Assembly (NCBI RefSeq): GCF_044324785.1
Contig: NZ_CP172127.1
From: Escherichia coli
GTDB taxonomy: Bacteria; Pseudomonadota; Gammaproteobacteria; Enterobacterales; Enterobacteriaceae
Direction: 5' to 3' (one strand)
DNA: 64,000 nt
In this document: positions 24,532-43,360 of the stretch, in pieces
Layout: every line of letters begins with the position of its first letter
How positions within the stretch are numbered: the first letter of the stretch is position 1
Made by a program: the position numbers and the translations under genes
The notes under the pieces: model-generated
Told to the model about the DNA's origin: nothing
What the model saw: the letters and a program-made list of their open reading frames with translations, nothing else
The model's database searches: none

Positions 24532-24577
24532 AAGACTGCTAAAATGGCTTTTTGCCTCATCAACACCTGAAGGCCTC

Positions 24578-25048: not shown

Positions 25049-25057
25049 GACGGGTAT

Positions 25058-25082: not shown

Positions 25083-25088
25083 GACAGA

Positions 25089-25550: not shown

Positions 25551-25674
25551 GTAAAACTCCATTTTATTTAATCAAGGAACTGGTGACTCTCACCAGGGGC
25601 TATATAGGATATGCCTAATACTGTGGCGTGAGCAGTCCGGAACTGGAGTAGAACTCTTAGTAAAAAGCACTATT

Positions 25675-27675
25675 TCATCCTTGTTGCTGAAGCATGGGGA
25701 ATAATTGTTCGCAAAGTAAAACACCGTTATTCATTGCTTCTACCCGTGCCTCGCTTTCTGTATTACGAAATTGTGCCAACACATGTGCCAGCCGATAAAA
25801 ACCCACCGCGGAGAGGTCATTCGCCAGCAACTCTGCCTGACCAATAGCACTCTGTTCCTGATAGCGCCAGCCGTTATGGAGCAGTTGAATAAGTAACGCC
25901 TGGCAGCGCATCAGCAACTGATGAGCGGTAGACGGCACAGGCAAAACGCTGGCAGAAGGTAGCGGTGCCACAGGCGCAGTTTCTGCGTCCAGCGCCCAGG
26001 CGCGAGTTTTTGTCATCATCACCCGTGGTTCCAGTGTCAATTGCCCCTCTACAAAGCTGACAAAGCCAGAAACCAGACTCACGGGGTCGTCTGTTTGTTG
26101 CAAAAGCGCCGCCATGCGTTCAACGGCAAAAGGAGAACAGGCAGATGCCGGAAGGGATAACGTCAGCACATTATCTTCCCCTTCGCCGCTAATGACCTGC
26201 GCATCCAGTGTCTGGCGGCTGCTATCCCAACCAAGCGAAATACACTCCGCTACCGGCAGAATAAATAAGTTATCGACCTGGTTGAGTGGTCGTATGCAGG
26301 CGGGGGGACGCTGGCGTAAATATTCCCGCAAAGCCACAATGCCCGGCTGGCGCAACGGCGCACTCAACATTTGCCAGGCGTCTGGCGACAGTGGAACAAC
26401 ACTACTCAAGCGGTTGCGGGTAGCTAACAGCAGCTCGCCATCGGCACTGCGTTTTGCTGCTTGTGAAACAATTTGCCCACCCGCCAGTGCGCCAGCCTGA
26501 AAACTAAACAGCCGACGCGTCGCTGCCGGTGAGTTTTCCTGTTCGCTTCTCGGCCAACTACGCGAAAGGTGCAAAATACTGCCGGTGTCGGGATCGGTAA
26601 ACCAGATGCGTAAACCATACTGCTCAATATCCTGCCAGCAACGCATACCTAAAGACACCAGCCGCAGATGATCAAGCTTTGCTTCTCCGGCAATGCCAGC
26701 GCCAACGACCGTGCGCCACGGCATGGGAGGAACTTCACCAACACTGTCGCGCCGGGCCATCTCTTGTGCACAATTTAATCGATTGTTTAATGCCGCAAGC
26801 TGACATAAGCATTCTCCGGCATGATAGTGGCTGGCGCGGGCGTGGAAGGCATCAACGCTGGCGCGCAGTTGCCGTAGCGATTCACTCACCCAGCGCCAGT
26901 TGCAGCGTTCCGCCGCTTGCTGCGCGCGGCTGAAAGCAGCCTCGTAATGAATAAGCGGCTGGCTGATGCCGCCAAGCCATAACGCCTGGCTTAATTGCTG
27001 AACATATTGACGACACGCGTCGCCCTCATCGTTGGCAAACGGATCGTCAGATGATGTGACGTGTTCGCTGCGCATCTGCCAGATTAAATGAGTAAATTCC
27101 GCTTGCTGCGCTTTGGCCTGGGCAAAGGCCTGTACTGCCAGTACGACATGTTCGCAAAGTGTGCCGTCAATACAATCACAGCGTGCGAAACGAATGCTGC
27201 TGCGGGAATAAAAACGTACATCGCTCATCGGTAAGCGGGCAGAGGGAATTTCGCCAGGCGTACAGAACAACTCAATGGTGATGCCTTTAGCGACCAGTGT
27301 CTGTGCGCGTTTGCGGGTGGCATCGGGCAGGGTAGCCAGTTCTTCCAGCCAGATTGCCGGATCCCACTCTTCTTCTTTTTCCGTAGGCTGGGTGGTGGCG
27401 CAAAGTCGCTGATAACTTAAAACCAGCATCACGCGATGGCGGCACATGCCGCTGGCCCCGCAGCTGCATTGAGCCTCTTTCAGTGCCTGACCGTTCGCCA
27501 GCTGGGTGCGGACACCGTCACTGAAGGTGGCGATTAAAGCGCCGTTCTCATGGCTGATTTCCGGGACGTTGCCATTTTCCAGTTCTTTAAGGCTGCGCTT
27601 AACAAAACCGGCATTGCTTAACGCCGTCAAAGCTTGTGGTGTCAGTTCTAATAATTCCGGCCGTAGTGAATTCAT
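25675..27675 (-). CDS. yehQ: SWIM zinc-finger protein YehQ
   Basis: 666-aa ORF with two CxC..CxH SWIM-like motifs (CSCGASGMCRH, CDCIDGTLCEH); ATGA overlap with yehP stop. Confidence 0.8.
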   Translation of the reverse strand: MNSLRPELLELTPQALTALSNAGFVKRSLKELENGNVPEISHENGALIATFSDGVRTQLANGQALKEAQCSCGASGMCRHRVMLVLSYQRLCATTQPTEKEEEWDPAIWLEELATLPDATRKRAQTLVAKGITIELFCTPGEIPSARLPMSDVRFYSRSSIRFARCDCIDGTLCEHVVLAVQAFAQAKAQQAEFTHLIWQMRSEHVTSSDDPFANDEGDACRQYVQQLSQALWLGGISQPLIHYEAAFSRAQQAAERCNWRWVSESLRQLRASVDAFHARASHYHAGECLCQLAALNNRLNCAQEMARRDSVGEVPPMPWRTVVGAGIAGEAKLDHLRLVSLGMRCWQDIEQYGLRIWFTDPDTGSILHLSRSWPRSEQENSPAATRRLFSFQAGALAGGQIVSQAAKRSADGELLLATRNRLSSVVPLSPDAWQMLSAPLRQPGIVALREYLRQRPPACIRPLNQVDNLFILPVAECISLGWDSSRQTLDAQVISGEGEDNVLTLSLPASACSPFAVERMAALLQQTDDPVSLVSGFVSFVEGQLTLEPRVMMTKTRAWALDAETAPVAPLPSASVLPVPSTAHQLLMRCQALLIQLLHNGWRYQEQSAIGQAELLANDLSAVGFYRLAHVLAQFRNTESEARVEAMNNGVLLCEQLFPMLQQQG

Positions 27676-28808
27676 GACTGAAGATTCTCCGCAAGCCAGG
27701 TCGCCAGTTCGCCCGGCGTCATGGCGGCTATTTGTGCGCCGACATTAACCAGCGCCTGGGCCGTATCGTGGTCATAGCAAGGTGTTGCGGTGCTATCGAG
27801 CGCCGCCAGTCCCAGCACTTTGACGCCGCTCTGGACACACGTTTTCACCTGATGCGTCAGCAATGATGATGAACCCCCTTCATAGAAATCGCTCACGAGG
27901 ATAATGACGCTTTTCGCTGGTTGTTCAATAAGTTGCCGACCATACTCCACGGCACTGGCGATATTGGTCCCGCCGCCCAGTTGTACTTTCATTAATAACT
28001 CTACTGGATCAGCAACGTCTGCCGTGAGATCAACGACGCTGGTGTCAAACGCCACCAGATGGGTACGAATGCCGGGTAACTGCCATAAACAGGCCGCCAT
28101 CACCGCAGAGTGGATCACCGAATCGACCATCGATCCGCTTTGATCAACCAGTAAGACCAGTTGCCATTGTTCGCTTTGGCGTTTAATGCGGCTGTTAAAG
28201 CGGGGGGATTCGATATACAACTTGCCGTGTTGCGGGTGCCAGTGTTGCAGGTTGGCGCGCAGAGTACTTTTGAAATCAAAGTTTCGCGCCAGTGGAATAA
28301 ATGAGCGGCGACGGCGATCGCGGACACCAGAAAAAGCCTGGCGAACTTCCTTTGCCAGTCGCGCCATAATTTCTTCAACAACCTGGCGCACTATCCGGCG
28401 GGCGGCAGCCAGCACTTCGGGATTCATCAGATGTTTGGTGTGCAAAACGGCGCGTAGCAGGCTTTCAGAAGGCTGCATACGTTCCAGCACGTCGAGATTC
28501 GTCACCACATCTTCAATGCCGTAGCGCAGTACGGCATCGCTTTCCAGCCGCTCGATCACCTGTTGCGGAAACAGCGTGTGAATACTGTTGATCCACTCAG
28601 GGGTGGTGAGATTTGAGTCACCTAATCCACCGGAGCGTTCACCACGCTGGAGCCGTTCAGGATCGCGCCCATACAGCCACTCCAGCGCGTGGTCTATCTG
28701 CCGGGCATTGTCATCCAGCCCACAAAGGGTCGTTTCTGCCGCTTCGCCAAGAATTAATCGCCAGCGTTGTAGCTCACGGGTGGTCAGAAGATCGTTCAGT
28801 TCAGACAT
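27672..28808 (-). CDS. yehP: von Willebrand factor A-domain protein YehP
   Basis: 378 aa from internal ATG (MSELNDLLTTRELQ); MIDAS motif DQSGSM; overlaps yehM stop (ATGTCTGA). Confidence 0.85.
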   Translation of the reverse strand: MSELNDLLTTRELQRWRLILGEAAETTLCGLDDNARQIDHALEWLYGRDPERLQRGERSGGLGDSNLTTPEWINSIHTLFPQQVIERLESDAVLRYGIEDVVTNLDVLERMQPSESLLRAVLHTKHLMNPEVLAAARRIVRQVVEEIMARLAKEVRQAFSGVRDRRRRSFIPLARNFDFKSTLRANLQHWHPQHGKLYIESPRFNSRIKRQSEQWQLVLLVDQSGSMVDSVIHSAVMAACLWQLPGIRTHLVAFDTSVVDLTADVADPVELLMKVQLGGGTNIASAVEYGRQLIEQPAKSVIILVSDFYEGGSSSLLTHQVKTCVQSGVKVLGLAALDSTATPCYDHDTAQALVNVGAQIAAMTPGELATWLAENLQS

Positions 28809-31080
28809 GGAAAACTCCCCAGTGTTGCAGCGATGCCAGTGCCTGCTGTTCGAGTTGTTGATGATGTGCAATGGCTTGCGGTGGACAATGCAACGGCATT
28901 TGCAGCGCTGAAACGGGAAGCTGTGCGAGCTGGTAATGCTCAAGCACCTGATGCGCCAGCGTCCCGCGTTCCCGTGGTGGTAGCCAGGCCATCGCCGCAC
29001 GTAAATCGGGCAGGGCGTTAATAAAATCGTCGTCACTCAGTTGATTTAAATGACTACTGAAACCGGCGATAAATGCCGGCTGACAGGCCAGTTGATGGCG
29101 GGCCAGCGCCAGCAAACCGTGCAGTGCCTCGCCGGATTGTGCCGGGGATAATTGCGCCAGCATCGTCAGCGCCGCTTCGGCACTGGCGTTGGGATGTTCC
29201 AGACGCATCAGTGCGCCAAGAGCCGCGCCGCGATCCAGCGCCGGGGCATGAATCGCCTGACTGCGGCGCTCCAGTAAGGCTACCGCCGCAGAAAGAGAAA
29301 CGCCGGGTAAATTAACGCCGCTATGTAGATCGCGCAGGATATGGCAAAGCGCCTGCCAGCTATGCAGGTGAGCGTGAAACTCCTTTTCCTCCGGTCTGCC
29401 GTTGGATTCACACAGCCAGAGTGTGCGATCGATAGCCGCGCATAACGTCGTCTGTAATATCTGCGCGCCTTGCATACCGCTAATTTCATCCAGCCGCCAT
29501 AAGGCGTATAGCACTTCCAGCGCCTGGCCCATTTCGGCAAACTGATTTTCCTGGGCGATTAATAATGTAAGTTGCTCCAGTAATTGTTGACTGAAGGACG
29601 CCAGACCCGCTAACGCCGCCTGGCTAAGACATGTGGTGATACTGCCGATTCCACCCGCGTCCAGCATATCGGCTTCTAATTTATTGCGTGCGGCTTCCTG
29701 GAGTGTGGCACCAAAGCAGGCGGCCTCAATTAATGCCGCATGTTGGCTAAGCGGGCGGGTTAATTTCCAGCGTTCTTCACCGTTGCCTGCAAGTGTCAGT
29801 GTGCTTCCCTGCTGGCGTACAATCCCTGGGATCTCCAGTATTGCCAGCCGATGTAACACCTGACTTTGCGCTAGTCTATTGGGGTTAAAGCGATTTAAGG
29901 TAAGCTCCGCCGGAAGAGAGATTGCGGTACGTTCCAGTTCGCAGGTGACATCTTTTGGCAGAGGCGGTTGTGGCGTAGAAGGGGCAAGTTTACCGAATCC
30001 GTCACCCGCTAATGTGTCTATCAACGTTAGCAGAATCGGATCGGTATCGGGATGAATAACGCCGCGATAGCTCCACGGCAACGGCGCGTTCAAGGCTTCT
30101 TTAATCAGCGAGCCTGCTATGGCATCCAGCCAGTCAGTGCGTAACGGTAGTATATGACCGCGCAACTGTGCCAGCGCCATCGCATGCAGATGAGCGGCAG
30201 CCATATCCGCTGTTGAAGCAGGCAAGTGGTGCTGGCGCAAACGGGTAAGAACCGTTTTCAGCAGTTGTTCACCTGCCTGCTGCAAGCCCCACCGCCAGCA
30301 CCAGTTTTGCCAGACCGGGGCAGGCATTCCTGAAAGGTATCCTGCCAGCACATCAAGGCGCTTTTCACTGTATGGCGTGAGATAGCAACCTGTAACGGCA
30401 TCATCCAGTGAGAGCAATTCTGGCGTGTTAATTTCTTGCGGGCATTCGCGCCACATTTTTGCCAGTGCCGGAGCGTGCCAGCCTCCGCAGACGACTAATA
30501 CGTCGCCATTATTTTGCTGCATCGCCCATCCAATCCAGCGGGCCATAAAGGCTTCGCGCTGACGATTGAGTGCATCGCCGGAGGCGTCGCCCCGCAGTTG
30601 TACAAAATAGTGCGCCAGTGCAGAGGGTAATATAGTTTGCTGGCTTTCATCTTCGAACAAGTGATCCCACAGGGTGTCGCTGTTATCCATGCGGGTGGCA
30701 CGCAGCAGCAAGGTCTGGCTTTCCTCTTGCGTATCAGGCGAATTGTCCTCTTCTTCACTCTGTGCCCAGCAAGGCAAATCGATGAAGTAAGTTTGTGCCT
30801 GAATACGACGTGCGGCTTGTAGCGCCTGCCACTCCGGCGAAAATTCAGCAAATGGCGTCCAGGCACCACGCCCGGGGGCCGCACCGTCCTGATACTGGCA
30901 ATAACTGTAAATAGCTACCGGAAGCTGGTGGGCTAACAACAGTTCGTCTACCCGGTCATTAAAATCAGCCGGGCCTTCAATCAACACGTATCGTGGCCGC
31001 TGGCTTTCGATTAACGATTTCACCAGCCGGGCGCAGGCCGGACTATGATGCCGGATGCCGACAATTAACGGCTCGCTCAT
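28801..31080 (-). CDS. yehM: uncharacterised large protein YehM
   Basis: 759 aa from internal ATG (MSEPLIVGIRHHSPACARL); ORF track extends 47 codons upstream into yehL. Confidence 0.85.
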   Translation of the reverse strand: MSEPLIVGIRHHSPACARLVKSLIESQRPRYVLIEGPADFNDRVDELLLAHQLPVAIYSYCQYQDGAAPGRGAWTPFAEFSPEWQALQAARRIQAQTYFIDLPCWAQSEEEDNSPDTQEESQTLLLRATRMDNSDTLWDHLFEDESQQTILPSALAHYFVQLRGDASGDALNRQREAFMARWIGWAMQQNNGDVLVVCGGWHAPALAKMWRECPQEINTPELLSLDDAVTGCYLTPYSEKRLDVLAGYLSGMPAPVWQNWCWRWGLQQAGEQLLKTVLTRLRQHHLPASTADMAAAHLHAMALAQLRGHILPLRTDWLDAIAGSLIKEALNAPLPWSYRGVIHPDTDPILLTLIDTLAGDGFGKLAPSTPQPPLPKDVTCELERTAISLPAELTLNRFNPNRLAQSQVLHRLAILEIPGIVRQQGSTLTLAGNGEERWKLTRPLSQHAALIEAACFGATLQEAARNKLEADMLDAGGIGSITTCLSQAALAGLASFSQQLLEQLTLLIAQENQFAEMGQALEVLYALWRLDEISGMQGAQILQTTLCAAIDRTLWLCESNGRPEEKEFHAHLHSWQALCHILRDLHSGVNLPGVSLSAAVALLERRSQAIHAPALDRGAALGALMRLEHPNASAEAALTMLAQLSPAQSGEALHGLLALARHQLACQPAFIAGFSSHLNQLSDDDFINALPDLRAAMAWLPPRERGTLAHQVLEHYQLAQLPVSALQMPLHCPPQAIAHHQQLEQQALASLQHWGVFHV

Positions 31081-31090
31081 GCATCTTTCC

Positions 31091-32179
31091 TCACGGCAGG
31101 CGGTGGCGAGCTTGATAATAAGCCTGCCAGTGAGCTTCTTTATGTGTAGCGACACGTTGTTCGAAGTAACGGCGCAGACGTGCGCGATCTTCTTCGTTAT
31201 CTTTGACGATGGTTCCGGCAATACAGTCCACCAGGTCGGCTGGCTCCCCCGCGCGATTCGCTAAAAACCAGGCGCGGACGCCCACAGCGTGGGCCACGTT
31301 CACGGCTTCAGCGGTGGACATAATCGCTGTCAGTGTATCCATTGACGTTTTCTTTTCGCCGTTGGCACGCAGATCGCGGAAGGTGCGTACCAGTAACTCC
31401 AGTACCGCGTCAGGCACTTTATGCGGAATACCGCTATGGGCCAACAAACGCGCCGAAGCACTGGCGACCAGTTCCAGCTCCTGGGCGAAATCCATAATCG
31501 GAAAGACAGTTTCAAAATCGAAGCGACGCTTTAGCGCAGCACTCATTTCATTGACGCCGCGATCGCGGGTATTGGCAGTGGCAATAATATTAAAGCCTTC
31601 CCGCGCATAGAGCTGACTGGCTTCACCAGTGAGTTCCGGCACCGTCATTACCCTGTCAGAAAGCATACCTAACAGACAGTCTTGTACTTCCAGCGGTGTA
31701 CGCGTTATCTCTTCAAAACGGACAATTTTGCCGTCGCGCATTCCCTGGTAAAGCGGGGCAGGGACCAGCGCTTCCGTTGACGGACCATGGTTGATAAGCA
31801 GGGCGTAGTTCCAGCCATACTTGATTTGATCTTCGGTGGTAGATGCGCCGCCCTGGATGGTTAACCCGGCATCGCCGCTAATAGCGGTTGCCAGTAATTC
31901 AGACAGGAGAGATTTTGCGGTGCCAGGTTCCCCCACCAACATCAAACCGCGCCCGGTAGCGAGAGTGACTAACATGCGTTCGACAGCGGAGGGACTGATC
32001 ACGACTTTACGGCTAATATTTTGCGCTTCGTCGCCAAGGATAAAAGCACGGGCCGCAGGCAAACTTAACTGCCAACCTGGCGGGCAAGGTGCGTTATCAT
32101 TTTGTTTTAATTTTGCCAGTTCATCGGCGTATAACACAGCGGCAGGCGGACGCTGCAGATGTTTATTCTGCGGTGACAT
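31091..32179 (-). CDS. yehL: MoxR-type AAA+ ATPase YehL
   Basis: 362 aa from internal ATG (MSPQNKHLQRP); Walker A GEPGTAKS. Confidence 0.85.
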   Translation of the reverse strand: MSPQNKHLQRPPAAVLYADELAKLKQNDNAPCPPGWQLSLPAARAFILGDEAQNISRKVVISPSAVERMLVTLATGRGLMLVGEPGTAKSLLSELLATAISGDAGLTIQGGASTTEDQIKYGWNYALLINHGPSTEALVPAPLYQGMRDGKIVRFEEITRTPLEVQDCLLGMLSDRVMTVPELTGEASQLYAREGFNIIATANTRDRGVNEMSAALKRRFDFETVFPIMDFAQELELVASASARLLAHSGIPHKVPDAVLELLVRTFRDLRANGEKKTSMDTLTAIMSTAEAVNVAHAVGVRAWFLANRAGEPADLVDCIAGTIVKDNEEDRARLRRYFEQRVATHKEAHWQAYYQARHRLP

Positions 32180-32290
32180 ATATTCATCCCTGAAATGTAT
32201 TAATGAAATAAACGATATTTTACGCGCAATAAATGTTTGGCGCATTAGTTGTTTGAGCGAAAAATATCTGGAAAGCAGATCACAGTAAAT

Positions 32291-32371
32291 AAAAAAACCT
32301 GCTGGTGAGGCAGGTTCTTTTATTTACTACAGTGACGCTAACTTGCTGATTGTGCAACATTTCGTACCAAC
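32291..32371 (-). ncRNA. orzO: OrzO-like antitoxin sRNA (copy 1), ~81 nt
   Basis: Minus-strand promoter (-10 TATAAT at 32383-32378, -35 TTGCAA at 32406-32401, 17-nt spacer); terminator hairpin AACCTGC-TGGTGAG-GCAGGTT 32296-32316 followed by U-tract on minus strand; 5' 18 nt complementary to toxin 5' UTR 32520-32537. Confidence 0.6.
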
Positions 32372-32377
32372 GAATAA

Positions 32378-32428
32378 ATTATAACCATATCCACACTCCA
32401 TTGCAATTCAGTGAATGAGATTTATAAT
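32378..32428. promoter_or_regulatory. divergent sigma70 promoters of zor copy 1 and its sRNA sharing one palindromic -35 hexamer TTGCAA
   Basis: Plus strand: TTGCAA (32401-32406)-16 nt-TATAAT (32423-32428); minus strand: same TTGCAA-17 nt-TATAAT (32383-32378). Confidence 0.55.
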
Positions 32429-32609
32429 CCTGCCCGTTGGGAGGTTGTGCCGGATCGGACCAATTTTAAGTCCTGGCTACCGGACGGGTGGTGCCGCAGG
32501 CGGTGCCCTGATCCGGAGAGCAACGTTTCGTACCAACATACGTAAACCAGTATCGACAGGCAGTGTAAGGGTAAGGTGCTGGTGTTGCGCTCCTTAATAA
32601 GGAGAGCGG

Positions 32610-32699
32610 ATGGACACGCTGACACAAAAGTTAACCGTGCTCATTGCTATACTGGAGCTATTAGTGGCTCTGTTACGGTTGATTGATTTGTTGAAGTAA
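32610..32699 (+). CDS. zorO: type I toxin, 29-aa hydrophobic peptide ZorO/ZorP family (copy 1)
   Basis: Manual translation: MDTLTQKLTVLIAILELLVALLRLIDLLK; AAGGAG SD 5 nt upstream; ~175-nt 5' UTR from predicted TSS ~32436; O versus P assignment between the two copies is uncertain. Confidence 0.8.
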   Translation: MDTLTQKLTVLIAILELLVALLRLIDLLK

Positions 32700-32720
32700 C
32701 GGGCAAATTGAAACGCATCT

Positions 32721-32745
32721 AAGGGGGAAAACCGCTTCCCCCTTT
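32721..32745 (+). terminator. rho-independent terminator of zor copy 1
   Basis: AAGGGGGAAAACCGCTTCCCCCTTT hairpin 22 nt after stop. Confidence 0.6.
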
Positions 32746-32897
32746 AATAAAATGATTACTGTTTTTATTAATTCATCATATAACTCATTTTTATTTATAA
32801 ATTCATCGATTTTATATTCAACGTACCATTTGACCGGGATGTGAATATTTATGGTGGGCTATTGGCAAAAAATATCTGGAAAGTAGATCGCAGAAAA

Positions 32898-32979
32898 TAA
32901 AAAAACCTGCTGGTGAGGCAGGTTCTTTTATTTACTACTTTGATGTTAAGTTACTGATAGTGCAACATGGCATCTCAAC
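32898..32979 (-). ncRNA. orzP: Orz-like antitoxin sRNA (copy 2), ~82 nt
   Basis: Minus-strand -10 at 32991-32986, -35 TTGCAA 33014-33009; terminator hairpin 32904-32924 with U-tract; 5' region complementary to copy-2 toxin UTR 33126-33146. Confidence 0.6.
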
Positions 32980-32985
32980 GAACGA

Positions 32986-33036
32986 ATTATAACCACCTCT
33001 GGACAGTGTTGCAATTAAGATAATGAGATTTATAAT
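32986..33036. promoter_or_regulatory. divergent promoters of zor copy 2 and its sRNA sharing palindromic TTGCAA
   Basis: TTGCAA 33009-33014; plus-strand TATAAT 33031-33036; minus-strand TATAAT 32991-32986. Confidence 0.55.
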
Positions 33037-33217
33037 CCTGACTGTTGGGAAGTTGCGCCGGATCGAACCCATTTCAAGTCCTGGCTACCGGACGGGTGGT
33101 GCCGCAGGTAGTGCTCTGATCCGGAGTGCAACATGGCGACTCAACAAACGTAAACCAGTGTCGACAGGCAGTGTAAGGGTAAGGTGCTGGTGTTGCGCTC
33201 CTTAATAAGGAGAGCGG

Positions 33218-33307
33218 ATGGACACGCTGACACAAAAGTTAACCGTGCTCATTGCTGTACTGGAGCTATTAGTGGCTCTGTTACGGTTGATTGATTTGTT
33301 GAAGTAA
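33218..33307 (+). CDS. zorP: type I toxin, 29-aa hydrophobic peptide ZorO/ZorP family (copy 2)
   Basis: Manual translation: MDTLTQKLTVLIAVLELLVALLRLIDLLK (one I-to-V difference from copy 1); same SD and UTR architecture. Confidence 0.8.
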   Translation: MDTLTQKLTVLIAVLELLVALLRLIDLLK

Positions 33308-33326
33308 CGGGCAAATTGAAACGCAT

Positions 33327-33734
33327 CTAAGGGGGAATACCGTTTCCCCCTTTAATAAAGCTATACTCGTCATACTTCAAGTTGCATGTGCTGCGACTTG
33401 AATTATCTAGAGTATATAATTCTATTTGTTGGTTGAATATATTCTGTAGTTCACAATTAAAAATTACTATTACAGGTTCAGGTGATTCGCCTCGTAATTT
33501 TTGCTCATCAATAAACTCATCTCTTATATAAATCAACGCATCATTTATTAGCGGGTCGACATCTTCTCGATCACGTTGATGAAATGTTGGACGTAGCCGG
33601 AATCGCTCCAGCCGGTAGACGGAGCCTGTAAATAATTCAGAGCGTTTATGGATCTCAAGCCTGAAGGAAAACGGCTCTTCAGGTACAGGGGCCTCATAGT
33701 CGTAAATAGTGACCAGCTCTTTTTGCACGATCAT
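33327..33734 (-). CDS. yehK: hypothetical protein (YehK-like), 135 aa
   Basis: ORF in the position of yehK downstream of yehI; identity by position only; 3' end overlaps zor copy-2 terminator. Confidence 0.45.
   Translation of the reverse strand: MIVQKELVTIYDYEAPVPEEPFSFRLEIHKRSELFTGSVYRLERFRLRPTFHQRDREDVDPLINDALIYIRDEFIDEQKLRGESPEPVIVIFNCELQNIFNQQIELYTLDNSSRSTCNLKYDEYSFIKGGNGIPP
33329..33353 (+). terminator. rho-independent terminator of zor copy 2
   Basis: AAGGGGGAATACCGTTTCCCCCTTT hairpin. Confidence 0.6.
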
Positions 33735-33794
33735 CGCTTTTCCCGGTGGCAGGTCGTGTTAATAACGGGCAGTCGCATCACTGCCCGCTGTGTT

Positions 33795-36700
33795 TTAATG
33801 GAAAATAACGTCGGGTGCGCTTAACGCTTCACTCAAATCAAACACATCAAGTTCGGCAAAAGTGACAGATTTATTCTCGCGGTATACATGAAGAGAACGG
33901 AAGCTCATTAGCGCTTTGCTATCAACATTGTAGTGGTTAAAACCGGATGAAAACTTAAGGACCAGCCGGTACTCGCCCAGGTCATAGACAAATGCGTTCT
34001 CATAGCCTGACTCCCAGCCTTTGTATCGCATTCCCATAAGTTGCCCAACGGTAGCAGATTTACCTTCCCAGCGATTCAAACTATTACTGGCTGACTCGTC
34101 AGGCGTGAGCAGCACTGTGCGCCGTGCCAATTGGCGAAAAGGCGGCATAATTTCGTAATCGGCAAAAAGCTGTGCAAACTCACTGCGCATTTCTGCTGCC
34201 ATTTCTAACGGGTGGGCAATGCCAATCAGAGCATCGGCAGGCAGGTCAATGGGCTCATCTTGCTCATTGCAGAACTCCCCCTCAGCGGCCACACGAAAGG
34301 CGTTGAGTAAACGACGCGGTTCATTTGCCGGATAAACACCCCATATTAATCGCTGAGTAACCAGACGGGTAAAGGGATGATTAACAAACAGAGAATGAAA
34401 ATCTGCCAGCGACCAGCGTCGGGTGGTGCGCAGGGCAGTTTCAAGACGCGGGAGCAGGTTTTTGCTCACCTGAGTGGCATCTTTTTTTAGCCCTTTTAGT
34501 CGGGCCAGTGCCTCGGGTGCTTTCAGTTGATCGTCATCGGCGCGCAACCGGGGAACGCTTTTCTGGCGAACGTTTTGCTGATCAAAGATAACCGGGTTAA
34601 GGTTTTCATCGAAGCGAACGGTAAATTGCCGTGGACCAAAATCAAAAATCAACGCCTGCGGATCATCAAGACCCAGTGTTGGGACTAATCTGTCCGCTAA
34701 CTGTTCCTGGCTTAGCCCGCGATTTTCTGCGACCACCTGAAGAAATTCCGCCGCGTTATCACGTAAGGGGCGGGATTTCGCCCGTTGCGATATATGATGC
34801 AGCTGTATCAGTGCCATATCATTATTCATCTGAGTAAGGATGTTCAGGCCGCTGACGGCACGGGCAGATTTGCCTTCCTGTGGCCAGGCAAGGATCTGTG
34901 TCGTCAGATCCCGTGCCGTGCTTTCGTCGCCAAAGAGACTTAACGCCAGAAATGCCCAGTTGTCTTTTGCGGGAGCACCAGCTTGTTGCCACGCGGTGAA
35001 AAGATCCCAGGCAAAAGCTGCCAGCGTTTGCGGCTGGCAGAAAGTTTTCAGTTGTTCCAGTCCGCTATAAAAACGTCCGCCCTGGGTAAAGCACAGCATT
35101 TCGCCGATAATTTCCAGAGCGTCATCGGTAACAGGCTGATTATTAGTGATAAGGCGCGGCCTGGACCACATTGCCGGCTGCCAGAAATCAGGGGCTTTTG
35201 GAATGCGTGTCGGGTAAATCTCTATTGGACTCTGTTTAAGTAATTGCTCCAGGGCAGGCCATACATCTTTACGCTGCCAGCGGTTTGCCACGGTTTGCAG
35301 TAACTCGCCATGTCCCTGTTCGTAAAGTAAACGCAGGGCAAGTAATGCAGCTTCGCTATTATCGCTGGATTTGGTGAAGACAAGAGGGATAAGTGCAGTA
35401 GCCGTATGTTCCGGCCAATGTAAAATCCACTGGCGAGCCAGATCACGCTGCGCCGCGAAACGTCGCCAGACGCGGGCAACGGGCAGTGCCAGTTCGGTTG
35501 CGCCGAAATTTAAAATTAACGGAAATGTTTCTTTTGGACGATGTGAAAAAGCCAACAGCAGACCTGGTAGAGCATCCAATCCGAAGATACTGAGAAAATA
35601 GTCCTCACCCGCAGACAGATGCTTTTTCTCATTGATACGTAGCCAGAAAGTCAAAGCCATCTCACGCGGCAACTGCGCCAATAAATACTGGTTCCAGATA
35701 CTCTTTTCCCGACGATAGCGTGAGTAGCTGTCATTTTCCCATATGTTAATTAACACTTCTACGTGACCGCTGCGAAGCGCCTGTTCTGCTAATTGAGCTT
35801 CCGGGGAGCTCCAGCCATTCATGATCTCTTCAACCCGCCCTGGGTAGTAATGCCACTGAACAATGAGTGAATTGCGTGCAGCATCCAGTTTTCCGGGGAG
35901 TATATAATTCAAAAACAGCCATACATCATCTCCAAAACCCAGCTCCTGTAGTACAACTCGTCCACTTTTATGTTCCATGCGTTCCGCAAGAGATTCCGTG
36001 CTGAAATAACGGGCAGACTCAGTGGCGGCAAGCCTCTCTCGTTCGCCCGGTTGCCAGTAAACTTGCGGCGTTAATTCGAACGGTGCCAAATCAAGACGTG
36101 GAACTGTCATTTTTTTCTTACTACGCCACGGTGGTGAAACGAGGATTTCAGGCATTTGGCTGTTATCGGTGCTATCAATAACCGTTTTGGGCGGTGCCGA
36201 TAAATAACTATTCAGCACTGCCTGGGCTTGAGTACTTAACCACGGCATCACCTCTTCTGCCAGTTGTGGCTGCGATGCCATCAGCGTTTGTAACAGCGTA
36301 CGCCAGAATTCATCACGTGCTTTTTGCTGTGCAGGCAGCTTTTTGTCTTCGATGATTGGATAACCTGGGCGGGCTGGTGGTTCTTTTAACGCCAGCAGTT
36401 CTGCCAGTGCGGTGAGTGTCGCATGGGGGAAGTTTTTACTGTATTTAGCCACACGTTGCAGGCTGGGTTTGTTTTTATCAGCAACTAACAGCAAGGTGCG
36501 GATGACTTGCGGATGGTTAATTTGTACCAGCAGACTGCCGCAATCTTCTTTATGAGCATACATTGCCAGGCGCGGAACGGCTGCCAGTCCTTGTTCGCGC
36601 AAAAGGGAGGCGCAGGCCGCGTAGCCGAAGCGGTTTTCTTGTGACATGTAGCTGGCTTCGCGATCGCTAAATACGTCCAGGCCCCAGTATCGTTCGAGTT

Positions 36701-37427
36701 TTTTTACCGCTCTGGGGTCATTAGCAACAACTTTTAACCACTCCTTAGAATGAAAATGAGTCCGCGGGCATTCAAGGCCTACCAACTCATTGGCGATTTC
36801 TGGTTTTTCCGGGAGGAGCAGCGCAATAAAAGGGCGGCGAACTTTGGTTATTCCTGGCAGTGCGGCAATGAGTTTGTCGGCGCAACGCTGCCAGCTGCTT
36901 TCCTCTGCCAGAGAGAGATGCTTACGCAGTCGGAGATCGAATTCGTTATAGGTTTCTGAGCGATAACCATAGCCATAATCCTCGTTCTGATACTGCAATG
37001 TCACTAGCAGAGGATCACTCTCATAACACCGTGCAATAAACTGGCGTGCAATCACCACCTCAGTCGCATATTCCAGTCCCTCTTGTTGGACGATTTCGTC
37101 GAGCAACTGTTGGCTATCATTTTGCGCGATACAGGTTAGCGCCGCCATTGTCCGGGCCGGAACTGAGGGTTTGTGTTCTCCGATCAAGTTGATGGCCTGC
37201 GTAATGGCCGACTGCCACTCCAGTGAAAAATTTTCATAACGCCAGACAATGTTTTTTTTCTTCTCAGCTTTTTGTAGCAATTCATCACCCAGTGTCTGGA
37301 TGAGGCTTTCAGTGATAACAGGCACCGGTTCGCCCGGCCAACTGCGATGGCTGAGCGGCGTTTTGCCTTTTTTATATTTCAGTTCCACTTGGGCGTTATC
37401 CGCCAGCCACGGTAATTCCTTGTCCAT
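33795..37427 (-). CDS. yehI: DUF4132-family large protein YehI
   Basis: 1210-aa ORF; paralogous to downstream molR over most of its length. Confidence 0.9.
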   Translation of the reverse strand: MDKELPWLADNAQVELKYKKGKTPLSHRSWPGEPVPVITESLIQTLGDELLQKAEKKKNIVWRYENFSLEWQSAITQAINLIGEHKPSVPARTMAALTCIAQNDSQQLLDEIVQQEGLEYATEVVIARQFIARCYESDPLLVTLQYQNEDYGYGYRSETYNEFDLRLRKHLSLAEESSWQRCADKLIAALPGITKVRRPFIALLLPEKPEIANELVGLECPRTHFHSKEWLKVVANDPRAVKKLERYWGLDVFSDREASYMSQENRFGYAACASLLREQGLAAVPRLAMYAHKEDCGSLLVQINHPQVIRTLLLVADKNKPSLQRVAKYSKNFPHATLTALAELLALKEPPARPGYPIIEDKKLPAQQKARDEFWRTLLQTLMASQPQLAEEVMPWLSTQAQAVLNSYLSAPPKTVIDSTDNSQMPEILVSPPWRSKKKMTVPRLDLAPFELTPQVYWQPGERERLAATESARYFSTESLAERMEHKSGRVVLQELGFGDDVWLFLNYILPGKLDAARNSLIVQWHYYPGRVEEIMNGWSSPEAQLAEQALRSGHVEVLINIWENDSYSRYRREKSIWNQYLLAQLPREMALTFWLRINEKKHLSAGEDYFLSIFGLDALPGLLLAFSHRPKETFPLILNFGATELALPVARVWRRFAAQRDLARQWILHWPEHTATALIPLVFTKSSDNSEAALLALRLLYEQGHGELLQTVANRWQRKDVWPALEQLLKQSPIEIYPTRIPKAPDFWQPAMWSRPRLITNNQPVTDDALEIIGEMLCFTQGGRFYSGLEQLKTFCQPQTLAAFAWDLFTAWQQAGAPAKDNWAFLALSLFGDESTARDLTTQILAWPQEGKSARAVSGLNILTQMNNDMALIQLHHISQRAKSRPLRDNAAEFLQVVAENRGLSQEQLADRLVPTLGLDDPQALIFDFGPRQFTVRFDENLNPVIFDQQNVRQKSVPRLRADDDQLKAPEALARLKGLKKDATQVSKNLLPRLETALRTTRRWSLADFHSLFVNHPFTRLVTQRLIWGVYPANEPRRLLNAFRVAAEGEFCNEQDEPIDLPADALIGIAHPLEMAAEMRSEFAQLFADYEIMPPFRQLARRTVLLTPDESASNSLNRWEGKSATVGQLMGMRYKGWESGYENAFVYDLGEYRLVLKFSSGFNHYNVDSKALMSFRSLHVYRENKSVTFAELDVFDLSEALSAPDVIFH

Positions 37428-37436
37428 GCTCTTTCC

Positions 37437-40400
37437 TTATTCAAACAGGGCTTCAATATCGTTAATTAGCTCGCTGGCGGTGATGGCATCGAGTACGGAG
37501 AACTGCGCTTCCTGTGTTGAATTACTCCCCCAGCCATAGCTTTCTGCTTTGCCTTCCCATAGCCACAGCTTGCTTAAGAGTTGCTCGGCACTGAGTTCGG
37601 CTGGCGACATGCCGACCGCAAAACCTTCATCGATTTCCATGATTAACGACCAGCGGCCCAGAGGTTTGATCATCCAGCCGATCCAGCCTCCATCCTGCGG
37701 GGTGCCCTTTATCCAGCCTTTATTCGCCAGCCCCATGACCCGACCGCTCGGGCATTTTCTGCCTGCCCAGTGGGTCAGTTCGCTGGCGTTGCGCTCGGCT
37801 TCTGTCAGGGCGTAACTGTTACGGTCAAGCTGACGGAACGGTGGTAGCAGTTCATAGTCGGCAAAAAGCTGACCAAAGGCGGCAGCATCCGTTGGTGATA
37901 TTTCCAGAACGTGAGGAATGCCGATAGAGATATCGCCTTCCGGCAGGGTGAAAAGATCATCGTCAGCGGTGCTGTAGCTGTTATCTTCCGCCACGCGAAA
38001 GCAAGCCAGTAGCTCGTTTTCGGTGCTATAAACGCCCCAAATCAGACGGCGGGTTAAGTGACGAACCAGCGGATGCTCAACCAGGAAGAGCTGGAAGTTT
38101 TCCGGCGACCAGCGGCGGCGCAGGCACATGGCGGATTCCAGCCTTGCTACCTGCTGGGCGGCGATGGTACGCGCATCTTTTTTCAGCAATTTGTAGCGGT
38201 TAACAGCATCGTTCGCCTGTGATTCATCATCGCTTTTGTTTGGTTTGGGTAAATCTTTCAGGCGGCTGCCGGAAGCGTCACGCACAAACGGTTTTAAGGT
38301 TTCATCAAAGCTGACGGTGAACTGGCGTGGGCCGAAATCCAGCAGCAACGAACCGTTATCATCCAGACCGAGATTCGGTGCTAACCGATCTTCAAGCTCC
38401 GCCACCGTGAGCTCGCGGCTTTCGGCAATGTCGGCAATTTTCTCTTTCGCCCGCTCCTGTAATGCTTTGAATTTCAGTTTCTGGGCGATGCCGTTAAGCT
38501 GCATCAGGGCGATATCACTACCGATAGCAGCGAGAATATCCAACCCAACGGTGGCGCGTTTATGCTGAGATTCGCCAGGCCAGGCGCGGATTAATGGCGT
38601 CAGTTTGCGGGCGGTGTCATCGTTGCCGAGAACACCTAACGCAATGAACGCCCAGCTTTCTTTCGATGGCGCGCCCGCAGTCAGCCAGGCGGTAAACAGA
38701 TCCCAGGCAAATTCAGCCAGAGAGTCAGAGGTACAGGCATCTTTCACCTGCAATAATCCCGGATACAGAGCCTCTTCCAGAGGGAAGCGGAGCATTTCAC
38801 CGAGGTGGAGGAGGGCGTTATCTGGCAGTGATTGGGCGTTTGCTTTTAATACCGGGCGCGTCCAGAGCGATGGCTGATAAAAGGCCGGAAGAGTGGGGAT
38901 TTTTGTCGGGTGATTATCTAAGGCATCGAGCGCAAGCAGAGCGTTCACCGCATCTGTTACTTCCGGCTGGTTATAACGCCGGGCGATTTCTTGCAGTAAT
39001 AGCTGATGACCGTTTTCGGTAAGCATACGCAAGGCAGCGCGGGCGTTATCCTGTGCTTCACCGGCTTTGCCGAGCGCCGAAGGTAGCAGGCCGGTAATGG
39101 CGTGTTCCGGGTATTTCAGCAGCCAGGTGCGGGCGTCTTGTCGTAGGGTTTTGAGTTTGTTGAAGGCGCGGGCGATCAGTGGCGCTAATTCGATAGCCGC
39201 AAAATATTGTGCTACAGGCAGAGCTTCTTGTGGATAGCGTGAAAAGGAGTGAATAAAACCCTGTAACCCAGCGAGTTGCAGGTGTGTCATGACAAACTCG
39301 ACACCGACGTGTGGCTCTTTACTAAGGACATTCCACGCCTGCGCTGTTTTTTCGATAGGCAGGGCGGCTAACATGTAAAGCTGCCATTCCCGTTGATAGG
39401 AGTGCCAGAAGGTTTTAAATTCGCTGATCAGCGCAGAATAATCTCCCCTCTGCCAGAGTTCTACAACAGCATCAGACGCTTTCATAGAGTGGCCATTATT
39501 CCAGCGATTGAAACCCAGACGTGTCAGGTAGTTCTGAATATCCTCTTTTTGGCCGATGTCTATTTGATGTGCGTGCCAGCGATGCCTTGCATGAATCTCT
39601 TTTTCTGCCGTCTCGGTCAATGTGCAGCATGACTCCAGCGGTAATGGCGTTAAATCCAATACCGGCATTACAGATTTTTTCTTTTTCGAAAGCCAGGGCG
39701 GTGAGACTAATACGGCAGGCAGCATATCGGCGCTGGCATGGTTTGAGGGCTGTGTCAGTTGTTGCTGGCATGATTTCAGTACGGCAACTGCGGGTGTTGA
39801 GAGCCAGGGAGTGACCTGTTCTGCTAGTGCCGGTTGCGAGATAAGCATCGTCATCAGCATAATGCGCCAACTATTCTCTTCTTTTTGCGCAAGAAGTTCC
39901 GCCAGTGCAGCCAGTGCTGCGTGTGGGAACGCAGCGCAAGCCTTAGTCATTCGTTCATGGCAGCGTTTAGTTTTGCCAGACACACGTATAAGTAGCATTA
40001 ATGCTTGTGGGTGATTGATCTCTTCGAGAATACTTCCACAAAGATCAGCATAAGCATAGGGGGCGAAGCGAGCGATTCCGGCAATCCCTTGCTCCTGCAA
40101 AACGGTGACATTCCAGATGCAACCATGGTAATAGTCATTAAAAAGGTCGTACGCGCAATAAGATTCCAGTGCTTTGAGCAAGGAAGATTCTTGAACAACA
40201 AGTTTCAGCCATTCAACAGTTTGGACATTTTTCTGCTTCAGTAACTGTCGTGCGACTTCTTCTGCAATCTCCGGGCGTTCCGGTAGCATTAGCGCTACCA
40301 TCGGTTGTTGAACGGGAGGAATATCAGGCAAAGCTGTAATGAATTTATCTACACAGCGTTGCCACAAAGTTTCTTCTGCTAGAGCCAAATGCTTACGCAG

Positions 40401-41186
40401 TCGAACGTCAAAGGGGGTAACACAATGTGCGTGGTTTAATAATGGCTGAAAAGTAATGTGTATGCTTGTTCTGTGATAAGTGCAATCGAACGAGATATAT
40501 TGCATGGCAATAAACATATCCACGGCAAATTCTAGTCCGTAGACATAGACAATTTCATCCATGAGTTCAGGGCATTCGCCCCAGAATTTACGCGAAACCA
40601 GACCAACCTGTACAGCCAACGCAGCAGGAGAAAGTGGACCATTAGCGAGAGCTTCATTGATATTCTGCTGCCAGTTAGCAGAACATGCACTGAAATCGTA
40701 TGTTGTTAATTTTCCTGATAGATTATGAATATCCTGACCTAAATTCATAAGGAGGCTGTCTTGTGGTTCGCTTACAGCATCCCCAGGAAAACGTCGGGAA
40801 GGTAAGGCCTCCTGAGACTTTTTCTCCGATAGATGGATAGTGGAATCATCTGTAAGCCACGGGCATGGTGTCTCAGCAGGTTCAGCAACCATACTTTGGT
40901 CAAATACGACAGTGGTTTCTGCCACGCCAGTTGTATCTACTTCGATCGTTTCTATTTTGATTGCGGGTTGGGATGGCGAAGATAATTCTTCCACATATCC
41001 CTTCTTCACCTTCTCCGCAATCAGCTTCAGTTCCGCTTTTTCCGCAGCCGCAGTATCAGCAAAGCTTTTTACCTGACTTTGCCCTTTGGTGCCAACTTTT
41101 CCCCAACTGATATGCAACTCGTTTCCCTGTTGCTCAACCGCCCAGAATTTATGTGATTTTTCGCCCTGAAAGATAAAGTGTCTCAT
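37437..41186 (-). CDS. molR: WGR-domain/DUF4132 protein MolR (intact)
   Basis: 1249-aa uninterrupted ORF; N-terminal WGR-like domain (FIFQGEKSHKFWAVEQQGNELHISWGKVGTKGQ); 9-nt gap to yehI start. Confidence 0.85.
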   Translation of the reverse strand: MRHFIFQGEKSHKFWAVEQQGNELHISWGKVGTKGQSQVKSFADTAAAEKAELKLIAEKVKKGYVEELSSPSQPAIKIETIEVDTTGVAETTVVFDQSMVAEPAETPCPWLTDDSTIHLSEKKSQEALPSRRFPGDAVSEPQDSLLMNLGQDIHNLSGKLTTYDFSACSANWQQNINEALANGPLSPAALAVQVGLVSRKFWGECPELMDEIVYVYGLEFAVDMFIAMQYISFDCTYHRTSIHITFQPLLNHAHCVTPFDVRLRKHLALAEETLWQRCVDKFITALPDIPPVQQPMVALMLPERPEIAEEVARQLLKQKNVQTVEWLKLVVQESSLLKALESYCAYDLFNDYYHGCIWNVTVLQEQGIAGIARFAPYAYADLCGSILEEINHPQALMLLIRVSGKTKRCHERMTKACAAFPHAALAALAELLAQKEENSWRIMLMTMLISQPALAEQVTPWLSTPAVAVLKSCQQQLTQPSNHASADMLPAVLVSPPWLSKKKKSVMPVLDLTPLPLESCCTLTETAEKEIHARHRWHAHQIDIGQKEDIQNYLTRLGFNRWNNGHSMKASDAVVELWQRGDYSALISEFKTFWHSYQREWQLYMLAALPIEKTAQAWNVLSKEPHVGVEFVMTHLQLAGLQGFIHSFSRYPQEALPVAQYFAAIELAPLIARAFNKLKTLRQDARTWLLKYPEHAITGLLPSALGKAGEAQDNARAALRMLTENGHQLLLQEIARRYNQPEVTDAVNALLALDALDNHPTKIPTLPAFYQPSLWTRPVLKANAQSLPDNALLHLGEMLRFPLEEALYPGLLQVKDACTSDSLAEFAWDLFTAWLTAGAPSKESWAFIALGVLGNDDTARKLTPLIRAWPGESQHKRATVGLDILAAIGSDIALMQLNGIAQKLKFKALQERAKEKIADIAESRELTVAELEDRLAPNLGLDDNGSLLLDFGPRQFTVSFDETLKPFVRDASGSRLKDLPKPNKSDDESQANDAVNRYKLLKKDARTIAAQQVARLESAMCLRRRWSPENFQLFLVEHPLVRHLTRRLIWGVYSTENELLACFRVAEDNSYSTADDDLFTLPEGDISIGIPHVLEISPTDAAAFGQLFADYELLPPFRQLDRNSYALTEAERNASELTHWAGRKCPSGRVMGLANKGWIKGTPQDGGWIGWMIKPLGRWSLIMEIDEGFAVGMSPAELSAEQLLSKLWLWEGKAESYGWGSNSTQEAQFSVLDAITASELINDIEALFE

Positions 41187-41293
41187 TCTGCATCCCTGTA
41201 ATTTTATCCAGTTGAATGCTGATGCTACCAGTATTTATGCGGGTTAGAGAGAGACAAAATCGCAAGAAAACAACTTTAGGAATTTATAAAGAA

Positions 41294-41317
41294 AAGGCGC
41301 TGTCGATGCAGCGCCTT
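41294..41317 (-). terminator. rho-independent terminator of metG
   Basis: AAGGCGCTG-TCGATG-CAGCGCCTT hairpin with U-tract on minus strand, 10 nt past metG stop. Confidence 0.6.
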
Positions 41318-41326
41318 GAAGGGGGA

Positions 41327-43360
41327 TTATTTCACCTGATGACCCGGTTTAGCACCGGCATCCGGGCTTAGCAGGAAAATATCTTTCCCGCCAGGACCGG
41401 CAGCCATCACCATGCCTTCAGAGATACCGAAGCGCATTTTACGTGGTGCCAGGTTAGCCACCATAATGGTGTGACGACCAATCAGTGCCTGCGGATCCGG
41501 GTAGGCAGAACGAATGCCGGAGAAGACATTGCGTTTTTCACCGCCGAGATCCAGCGTCAGGCGCAGCAGTTTGTCAGAACCTTCAACAAACTCTGCGTTT
41601 TCAATCAGCGCCACGCGCAGGTCAACTTTAGCAAAGTCGTCAAAGGTGATGGTTTCCTGAATCGGATCATCTGCCAGTGGGCCAGTAACTGGCGCGGCAG
41701 CTGCTTTCACTTCTTCTTTAGACGCTTCCACCAGTGCTTCAACCTGCTTCATATCGATGCGGTTATACAGCGCTTTGAACGGATTCACTTTGTGGCCCAG
41801 CAGCGGTTGCTGGATACCATCCCAGGTCAGTTCCGTATTGAGGAATGCTTCTGCGCGCTCGGTCAGTTTCGGCAGTACCGGCTTCAGGTAAGTCATCAGC
41901 ACGCGGAACAGGTTGATGCCCATCGAGCAAATTGCCTGCAGGTCGGCATCGCAGCCTTCCTGTTTCGCCACCACCCACGGAGCCTGTTCATCGACATAGC
42001 GGTTAGCCAGATCAGCCAGCGCCATGATTTCGCGGATCGCTTTACCAAATTCGCGGCTTTCCCATGCTTCACCAATCACTTCGGCGGCATCAGTGAAGGT
42101 TTTGTACAGTTGAGGGTCAGCCAGTTCGCTTGCCAGCACGCCGTCAAAACGCTTGTTGATAAAGCCAGCGTTACGGGATGCCAGGTTAACCACTTTATTC
42201 ACGATATCGGCATTCACACGCTGAACGAAATCTTCCAGGTTGAGATCGATATCATCAATGCGCGAAGAGAGTTTCGCAGTGTAGTAGTAACGCAGGCTGT
42301 CGGCGTCAAAATGATTCAGCCAGGTGCTGGCTTTAATAAAGGTACCGCGAGACTTAGACATCTTCGCGCCGTTCACCGTCACATAGCCATGAACAAATAG
42401 GTTGGTCGGCTTGCGGAAGTTGCTGCCTTCCAGCATGGCAGGCCAGAACAGGCTGTGGAAGTAAACGATATCTTTACCGATGAAGTGGTACAGCTCGGCG
42501 GTGGAATCTTTCTTCCAGTATTCATCGAAGCTGGTGGTGTCGCCGCGTTTGTCGCACAGATTCTTGAAGGAACCCATGTAGCCAATCGGCGCATCCAGCC
42601 AGACGTAGAAATATTTGCCCGGTGCGTTCGGAATTTCAAAACCGAAGTACGGCGCATCGCGGGAGATATCCCACTGTTGCAGGCCAGATTCAAACCACTC
42701 CTGCATTTTGTTTGCCACTTGCTCCTGCAACGCGCCGCTGCGGGTCCATGCCTGCAGCATTTCGCTGAAAGAGGGCAGATCAAAGAAGAAGTGTTCAGAA
42801 TCACGCATTACCGGCGTAGCACCAGAAACCACCGATTTCGGCTCGATCAATTCAGTCGGGCTGTAGGTCGCGCCGCAGACTTCGCAGTTATCGCCGTATT
42901 GATCCGGGGATTTACATTTCGGGCAGGTGCCTTTCACAAAACGGTCCGGCAGGAACATGCCTTTTTCCGGATCGTACAGCTGAGAAATAGTGCGGTTTTT
43001 AATAAAACCGTTTTCTTTCAGGCGAGAGTAGATAAGTTCTGACAACTGGCGGTTCTCTTCGCTGTGCGTCGAGTGATAGTTGTCATAGCTGATGTTAAAG
43101 CCTGCGAAATCAGTCTGATGCTCCTGACTCATTTCGCCAATCATCTGCTCCGGGGTGATACCAAGCTGCTGAGCTTTCAGCATGATCGGTGTACCGTGGG
43201 CATCGTCGGCGCAGATGAAGTTGACCTCGTGGCCGCGCATTCGCTGGTAACGGACCCAGACATCAGCCTGGATGTGCTCCAGCATATGGCCGAGGTGGAT
43301 TGAGCCGTTAGCGTACGGCAGTGCGCACGTCACCAGAATTTTCTTCGCGACTTGAGTCAT
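41327..43360 (-). CDS. metG: methionyl-tRNA synthetase
   Basis: 677 aa from ATG ([33 protein letters not shown] motif; KMSKS present). Confidence 0.95.

Follow-up and report, generated by a model that had tools for sequence, protein, structure and literature searches.

The window considered here is a stretch of 64,000 nucleotides (nt) of Escherichia coli DNA (NCBI RefSeq assembly GCF_044324785.1, contig NZ_CP172127.1), the minus strand of which carries the yeh gene cluster, and the subject of this analysis is a small open reading frame (ORF) of 135 codons that lies in this cluster between yehI and yehL, next to the second of two tandem zor/orz toxin–antitoxin units. The ORF is probably yehK, a real small gene with a C-terminal read-through that is specific to a strain lineage: 105 conserved codons are followed by a sense codon at the position of the K-12 stop, by the remnant of an enterobacterial repetitive intergenic consensus (ERIC) element, and by the 3′ end of the adjacent zor unit, in which the frame closes. 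The parts of the ORF and its upstream neighbour are the following.

33327 to 33734, minus strand: the extended yehK ORF, 135 codons with an ATG start and a TAG stop at 33327-33329 (ORF list).
33420 to 33734, minus strand: the conserved YehK core, codons 1-105, delimited by identity to K-12, the ratio of non-synonymous to synonymous substitution (dN/dS), the ends of homologues and the AlphaFold model.
33417 to 33419, minus strand: codon 106, TTA (Leu), which is TAA (stop) in K-12, O157:H7, E11 and an isolate labelled E. fergusonii.
33362 to 33416, no strand assigned: ERIC (IRU/RU-1) element of 55 nt, internally deleted, with the ends TATACTC...GAGTATA, supplying codons 107-124 and the first base of codon 125.
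33327 to 33361, minus strand: the final stretch of yehK, 11 codons that begin with the second base of codon 125 and run to codon 135, plus the TAG, all of it zor copy-2 sequence (3′ flank and terminator).
33795 to 37427, minus strand: yehI (DUF4132, 1210 amino acids (aa)), the upstream neighbour of yehK, with its stop at 33795-33797 (ORF list and domain scan).

The ATG of yehK occupies 33732-33734, with a spacer of 60 nt to yehI, and on its other side the cluster continues to yehL (AAA_5 ATPase), which ends at 31091. The place of the gene between yehI and yehL, on the same strand as both, is kept in all loci compared (L001-L011), and the whole core of ~105 residues aligns with the YehK family, the C-terminus being the part that departs from it, as the window protein has 135 aa whereas the homologues end near 105. 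The K-12 orthologue is YEHK_ECOLI (UniProt, 105 aa, uncharacterised), with which window yehK shares its position, its start codon and 90% identity over residues 1-105, and from which it differs by a Leu in place of the stop at codon 106, by 30 additional residues and by 11 substitutions within the core. E. coli N3 encodes the very same 135-aa protein under the accession WP_042004186.1 and the annotation ‘hypothetical protein’; the Prokaryotic Genome Annotation Pipeline (PGAP) names the window-type allele differently from that of K-12, which is called ‘protein YehK’.

The preliminary description had left it uncertain whether the ORF encodes a real protein in this strain, a doubt that does not hold for the core, which is conserved throughout the genus. 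Measured directly, dN/dS over the core is 0.13-0.30, whether the alleles compared come from E. coli alone or from different Escherichia species (dS reaching 0.97), and synonymous divergence among E. coli yehK alleles is 0.15-0.22. A phmmer search returned 42 relatives, those outside Escherichia having 100-134 aa and 30-48% identity, and AlphaFold models the core as four strands and a C-terminal helix, with a predicted local distance difference test (pLDDT) score of 79-96 by 10-residue block and of ~63 over residues 51-60. Judged by purifying selection, distant homologues and a mostly confident predicted fold, the yehK core appears to encode a real protein. YehK found no match in Pfam, NCBIfam or PADLOC scans.

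YehK has ~105 aa in K-12, O157:H7, other Escherichia species and distant homologues, against 135 aa in the window, and the nucleotide alignment places the difference in a single base, position 33418, at which the window and N3 read GAA TTA TAT and the K-12-like and O157 alleles GAA TAA TAT, the sequences being otherwise collinear. The loss of the stop at codon 106 is an ordinary rare allele: a 36-mer across the codon occurs in its TTA version in 21 of 5,426 complete E. coli genomes and in its TAA version in 916. Among these complete genomes the intact 135-aa frame of the window is found in N3 alone, while the exact protein is present on 335 public contigs and each 105-aa form on at least 1,000. 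In exactly 20 complete genomes, from diverse hosts, a 22-nt deletion at codons ~41-48 (L012:1216-1601; window equivalent ~33592-33613), flanked by short direct repeats (CCGTCTAC / CCGGCTAC), shifts the yehK frame, and comparison of the accession lists identified these 20 as all of the TTA genomes except N3; in the four that were inspected, PGAP annotates yehK as a frameshifted pseudogene. The idea that the stop was lost within an already dead yehK, as 20 of the 21 TTA genomes are frameshifted, was withdrawn as unproven, since a Shigella flexneri allele (P0067) with the same 5′ half has an intact 135-aa frame. Window yehK is itself a mosaic: relative to the frameshifted type (L012) it has eight mismatches in nt 1-138 and a further two, at nt 171 and 177, and is free of mismatches over nt 178-350, and relative to K-12 it has ten mismatches over nt 166-315.

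Codon 106 is followed by the 55-nt ERIC element. ERIC elements have been described as 127 bp long, with 7-bp terminal inverted repeats, TA termini and a target-site duplication (PMC2229807), and the window copy has the 7-bp inverted repeats, the TA termini and the TA target duplication. It departs from them in size, with 55 nt, and in being without the central ERIC1R/ERIC2 consensus. The orthologous site of E11 holds an element of the canonical 127 nt that has ends of the TATACTC/GAGTATA type and in which both ERIC-PCR primers match at 20/22 positions, and this full element is dispersed over 47,697 places in 5,425 of the 5,426 complete E. coli genomes (median 9 per genome), with no annotated feature beneath it among the matches listed, as expected of an intergenic repeat. 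The window form corresponds to the two extremities of the full element (26 nt from its start and 29 nt from its end), which meet at a direct repeat of 8 nt, AGTCGCAG, and the form is on this comparison best described as a deletion derivative of ERIC and not as a canonical copy. A sub-threshold Rfam match to isrH also covers the remnant (33362-33418, minus strand; 22.6 bits against a threshold of 45, E = 0.0019, model positions 159-216), which suggests that the isrH model contains ERIC-like sequence.

Beyond the ERIC remnant the ORF runs into the second zor/orz unit, and the features of this locus are listed here.

32610 to 32699, plus strand: zor toxin ORF, copy 1, 29 aa (ORF list).
33218 to 33307, plus strand: zor toxin ORF, copy 2, 29 aa, convergent with yehK (ORF list).
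32291 to 32364, minus strand: Orz antitoxin small RNA (sRNA) gene for zor copy 1 (Rfam RF02083, OrzO-P, 88.8 bits).
32899 to 32972, minus strand: Orz antitoxin sRNA gene for zor copy 2 (Rfam RF02083, OrzO-P, 91.7 bits).
33329 to 33352, plus strand: terminator-like hairpin at the 3′ end of zor copy 2, palindrome AAGGGGGAATACCGTTTCCCCCTT (repeat comparison and folding).

The two antitoxin matches compare with an Rfam gathering threshold of 60 bits for OrzO-P, and the units have the make-up of zor-orz systems, with hydrophobic toxin ORFs of 29 aa, a divergent Orz sRNA and paired divergent promoter-like sites (TTGCAA/TATAAT). They lie 608 nt apart from start to start, and comparison of copy 2 with copy 1 sets the end of the repeat unit at ~33359. 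The copy-2 hairpin, which has a twin in copy 1 at 32721-32744, folds with -16 kcal/mol (z = -3.1); it was not listed by a simple terminator scan because its T-run, TTTAATAAA, is interrupted and falls below five T in eight bases. The last eight codons of yehK (KGGNGIPP) and its stop overlie this hairpin, the TAG standing at the hairpin base, so that the preliminary description was right to have the final codons overlap the hairpin: the ORF ends inside 33329-33352. The hairpin beside yehK is conserved in all Escherichia species aligned, and a zor unit convergent to, and directly downstream of, yehK is present in E. albertii, E. ruysiae, E. marmotae, the isolate labelled E. fergusonii and E. coli, which argues that the adjacency is old and not an acquisition. 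Hairpin, 29-aa ORF and 5′ untranslated region of the unit can be located in E. albertii (L009:2875-2964) and, at ~2820-3300, in E. ruysiae (L010) and E. marmotae (L011).

Three states of the junction between yehK and zor can be told apart. The empty state is represented by E. coli F344 and STN0717-11 and by E. albertii, E. ruysiae and E. marmotae: a distance of 0-8 nt separates the stop of yehK from the zor hairpin, a single TA is present in the other species as well as in E. coli, and the two E. coli sites read GAA AAA TAG CTTTATTAAAGGGGG. In the full state (E11 and the isolate labelled E. fergusonii), a 127-nt insertion separates the TA of the stop codon from the zor flank, and in the short state (the window, N3 and O157) the 55-nt version takes its place. 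The K-12-type junction (L002:2985-3290; window equivalents 33398 and ~33072) has the left end of ERIC, TATACTCTAAATAATTCAA, followed directly by the zor 5′ region and an orz remnant, from which it follows that the K-12 ancestor possessed both ERIC and zor and underwent a deletion with its left endpoint inside ERIC. TTA at codon 106 together with a full-length ERIC was found in no genome, while full-length ERIC with TAA occurs in ~878 and all TTA genomes inspected carry the short ERIC; an order of events in which TAA came first therefore requires no repeated events.

The simplest order, as far as these alignments go, is an ERIC insertion, a TAA, an internal deletion and then the change from TAA to TTA. 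The ancestral yehK would have ended 0-8 nt from the hairpin at the end of the convergent zor toxin gene, until, in an ancestor of many E. coli, an ERIC of 127 bp would have inserted at the TA of the stop codon and turned TAG into TAT. A TAA one codon upstream (codon 106), which is present in nearly all ERIC-bearing genomes, would have held the protein at 105 aa; the ERIC would subsequently have lost 72 internal bases between two copies of its direct repeat, and in a rare haplotype codon 106 would have changed from TAA to TTA, a direction that we infer, while the base that differs can be read off the alignment. If the yehK mRNA is translated, synthesis would then continue for 30 further codons, 19 of them from the ERIC remnant and 11 from the zor 3′ flank and terminator, to the TAG.

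The rival account that survives best, unlikely in our view though it carries some weight, reverses this direction, in that ERIC would have entered a TTA allele, the read-through would be the original state, and the TAA of K-12, O157 and phylogroup B2 would be a later one-base repair that spread. It can appeal to the empty site of E. ruysiae, which reads GAA TTA TAA, to the fact that an ERIC at the TA of a stop codon necessarily destroys the old stop, and to selection for a regained stop, which would account for the dominance of TAA. However, the empty sites of E. coli itself have GAA AAA TAG and not TTA, and TTA is seen with the derived short ERIC and never with the full-length one, so that a TTA-first history requires the same deletion or a T-to-A mutation to have occurred twice, or else a crossover within ~25 nt. 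Several observations nevertheless weigh against our preferred order, in which TAA preceded TTA, or against the wider reading of an incidental read-through. As E. ruysiae is ERIC-free and has TTA at the codon 106 site, TTA could be the older state; the yehK locus is, to judge from its mosaic alleles, recombinogenic, which makes parsimony among alleles correspondingly weak; the extended form persists and is not strongly counter-selected, as the second intact 135-aa allele, that of S. flexneri (P0067), and the 335 contigs testify; and no YehK expression data were found among the relevant literature matches for yehK.

The tail, LYTLDNSSRSTCNLKYDEYSFIKGGNGIPP, starts with the Leu of codon 106; the ERIC remnant then contributes ~18 codons and the zor 3′ flank and hairpin a further 11, up to the TAG. 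The tail is absent from all of the 29 homologues aligned, including distant ones at 24-48% identity, which all end near position 105, and in the AlphaFold model, made with the homologue alignment, it scores 32-39 in pLDDT and stays below 50 from residue 108 on, so the tail is predicted to be disordered. Most likely it is a neutral (as we infer) or mildly harmful disordered appendage without a function of its own. A functional tail, or a regulatory read-through by which, for example, yeh-sense transcription running antisense into zor tunes the toxin, seems highly improbable to us. In its favour, two independent routes lead into the same frame through the zor hairpin (the 135-aa form and a 117-aa form), the intact 135-aa form exists on 335 contigs, and the convergent pair with its shared hairpin is conserved in the genus; these points are set against a tail that is predicted to be disordered and absent from all homologues, and against a gene that is dead in 20 of the 21 complete TTA genomes.

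The 117-aa variant (WP_000636940.1, for example in strain GPEC389) is found in 227 of the 5,426 complete genomes (~4%). It shares with window yehK the frame in which the zor hairpin is read (here ...FIKGGSGFPP) and the terminal TAG; unlike window yehK, it is much commoner and stands at an ERIC-free site, its cause being substitutions together with a small indel where the original stop had been. A further form of 140 aa (P0001) arose by a change of TAA to CAA in a K-12-type flank, and there are read-through forms of 154 and 158 aa as well, the tails of the 117-, 140-, 154- and 158-aa variants being unrelated to that of the window or solely terminator-derived. The C-terminus of yehK is a recurrently unstable boundary, at which the zor hairpin gives a stop to those variants that arrive in its frame.

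That the frame was created or extended by acquisition or tandem duplication of a zor/orz unit beside yehK, as the preliminary description had proposed, is barely credible as a cause, although part of the proposal stands: the frame is longer than ~105 codons, its last 11 codons and stop are zor-unit sequence, and K-12, which is without the zor toxin, has the short form. The refuting condition set at the time, full-length conservation in genomes without zor/orz, comes out in favour of the preliminary description as regards conservation: the extra part is not conserved, YehK ends at 105 aa in K-12-like genomes that lack the zor toxin, and where the stop is lost in such a background, as in the 140-aa form, the resulting tail is unrelated. 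However, zor lies directly beside yehK in all of the Escherichia species examined; O157:H7, with two zor copies and the same junction, makes a YehK of 105 aa; short and long forms both occur in one-copy as well as in two-copy genomes; the causal change, at codon 106, lies 57 nt before the zor sequence starts; and 19 of the 30 additional codons derive from the ERIC remnant, which the preliminary description had not recognised. A sequencing or assembly artefact behind the 135-codon frame is rejected, as the identical sequence is present in N3, the TTA 36-mer in 21 complete genomes and the exact protein on 335 contigs.

The fusion of an ERIC to the 3′ end of a gene is a kind of event that is already known, and the yehK instance is new. 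In-frame ERIC fusions at gene 3′ ends that remove the stop and add non-conserved tails have been described (Delihas 2007; PMC2759123), and the ECA3499 amidase of E. carotovora resembles window yehK in having an ERIC at the gene end, in the absence of the normal stop and in a non-conserved tail past the conserved domain (PMC2759123). Window yehK differs from these fusions in that its ERIC is a 55-nt remnant read in the opposite orientation (YTLDNSS... vs YTRHTSS...), in that a second event, at codon 106, is required, and in that the frame leaves the ERIC and enters the terminator of a neighbour. It thus offers a traced case of a new C-terminus, in which an ERIC would have come to lie on a stop codon, a nearby stop would have limited the length of the protein until a point mutation would have opened the frame into the neighbouring terminator. 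Its weight for biology at large is small and its use lies mainly in annotation and in the context of zor/orz: the 135-aa and 117-aa forms, which PGAP calls ‘hypothetical protein’, are yehK alleles.

The zor/orz locus of the window matches zorO-orzO and zorP-orzP of O157:H7 in having two tandem units at the same location (PMC2887945, PMC3919570, PMC11264685). Fozo et al. placed the O157:H7 locus ‘between yehI and yehL’ (PMC2887945), the system has been said to be confined to E. coli and Shigella (PMC3919570), with E. fergusonii added elsewhere (PMC2887945), and variation in copy number as well as the orz-only state of K-12 has been published (PMC11264685). The ERIC at this site, yehK as the neighbour and the overlap of yehK with the zor hairpin are not mentioned in these three zor/orz papers. 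The present observations add to the published picture, in which the region is treated as ‘yehI-yehL intergenic’, the ERIC goes unmentioned and the stated host range is narrower.

In the spacer on the other side of the gene lies one further element.

33766 to 33787, minus strand: conserved stem-loop CGGGCAGT/ACTGCCCG in the yehI-yehK spacer, with a stem of 8-10 bp and a loop of 6 nt.

The preliminary description had recognised this stem-loop between the yehI stop and the ORF, one position off (33767-33788 instead of 33766-33787), and it is real. As minus-strand, that is yeh-sense, RNA it folds with -18.3 kcal/mol (z = -4.66), and none of 200 shuffled sequences folds as well. It is kept in all of the 12 aligned Escherichia sequences, with a variable loop, which points to more than chance. 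The 5′ arm carries a C-to-U change in both E. marmotae and E. ruysiae, which leaves a G.U pair on the yeh-sense RNA and would give a C-A mismatch on the opposite strand, and in E. marmotae the stem is lengthened by further pairs; as the pairing is preserved on the yeh-sense strand alone, a role in the yeh mRNA is favoured. On the minus strand the element does not have the form of an intrinsic terminator, since its tail, UUAUUAAC, is not conserved (CUGUCUGA in E. marmotae) and contains no conserved U-run; simple terminator criteria are passed on the plus strand alone, with the tail CTGTGTTTTA. A sigma-S run-off array in K-12 recorded an antisense signal for the probe ‘intergenic region between yehI-yehK’ (PMC3141248), and the plus-strand stem-loop could halt transcripts from the zor promoter or from its K-12 remnant. 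In the yeh-sense message, the stem-loop would most plausibly protect the 3′ end of the yehI message or weakly attenuate transcription between yehI and yehK. It is an old, conserved yeh-sense mRNA element that is unrelated to zor.

Two more speculative ideas, which we regard as very improbable, concern regulation and function. The yehK variants that enter the shared zor hairpin could act as natural switches of antisense yeh transcription and of zor expression, because they remove the untranslated gap after yehK and would thereby change how far yeh-sense transcription runs antisense through zor. Separately, YehK could be an immunity-like small protein, since its structure weakly resembles that of an Rhs immunity protein and one homologue is Rhs-linked; genomic context was looked up for three distant homologues, two of them on contigs too short to inform. 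A small ORF beside a distant homologue was considered as a YehK paralogue, as in an immunity array, and was ruled out by an hhalign probability of 0.2%. PADLOC returned nothing for YehH-like, YehI, YehL, YehM, YehP or YehQ, and a known defence system is unsupported by this result. In a predicted protein of 2094 aa that is not part of the window (P0129), phmmer located 29 YehK-like stretches; Pfam gave no match, and the protein may be related to the YehK fold as a tandem-repeat or poly-domain form.

The yeh region as a whole appears unusually polymorphic and mosaic, as none of the 5,426 complete E. coli genomes exceeds ~97.3% identity to positions 24000-44000 of the window over 20 kb. Upstream of yehI, an intact ORF of 1249 aa (37437-41186, minus strand) is annotated in matching genomes as a DUF4132, or a WGR and DUF4132, domain protein; its K-12 counterpart (molR/yehH) is presumably annotated as a pseudogene.
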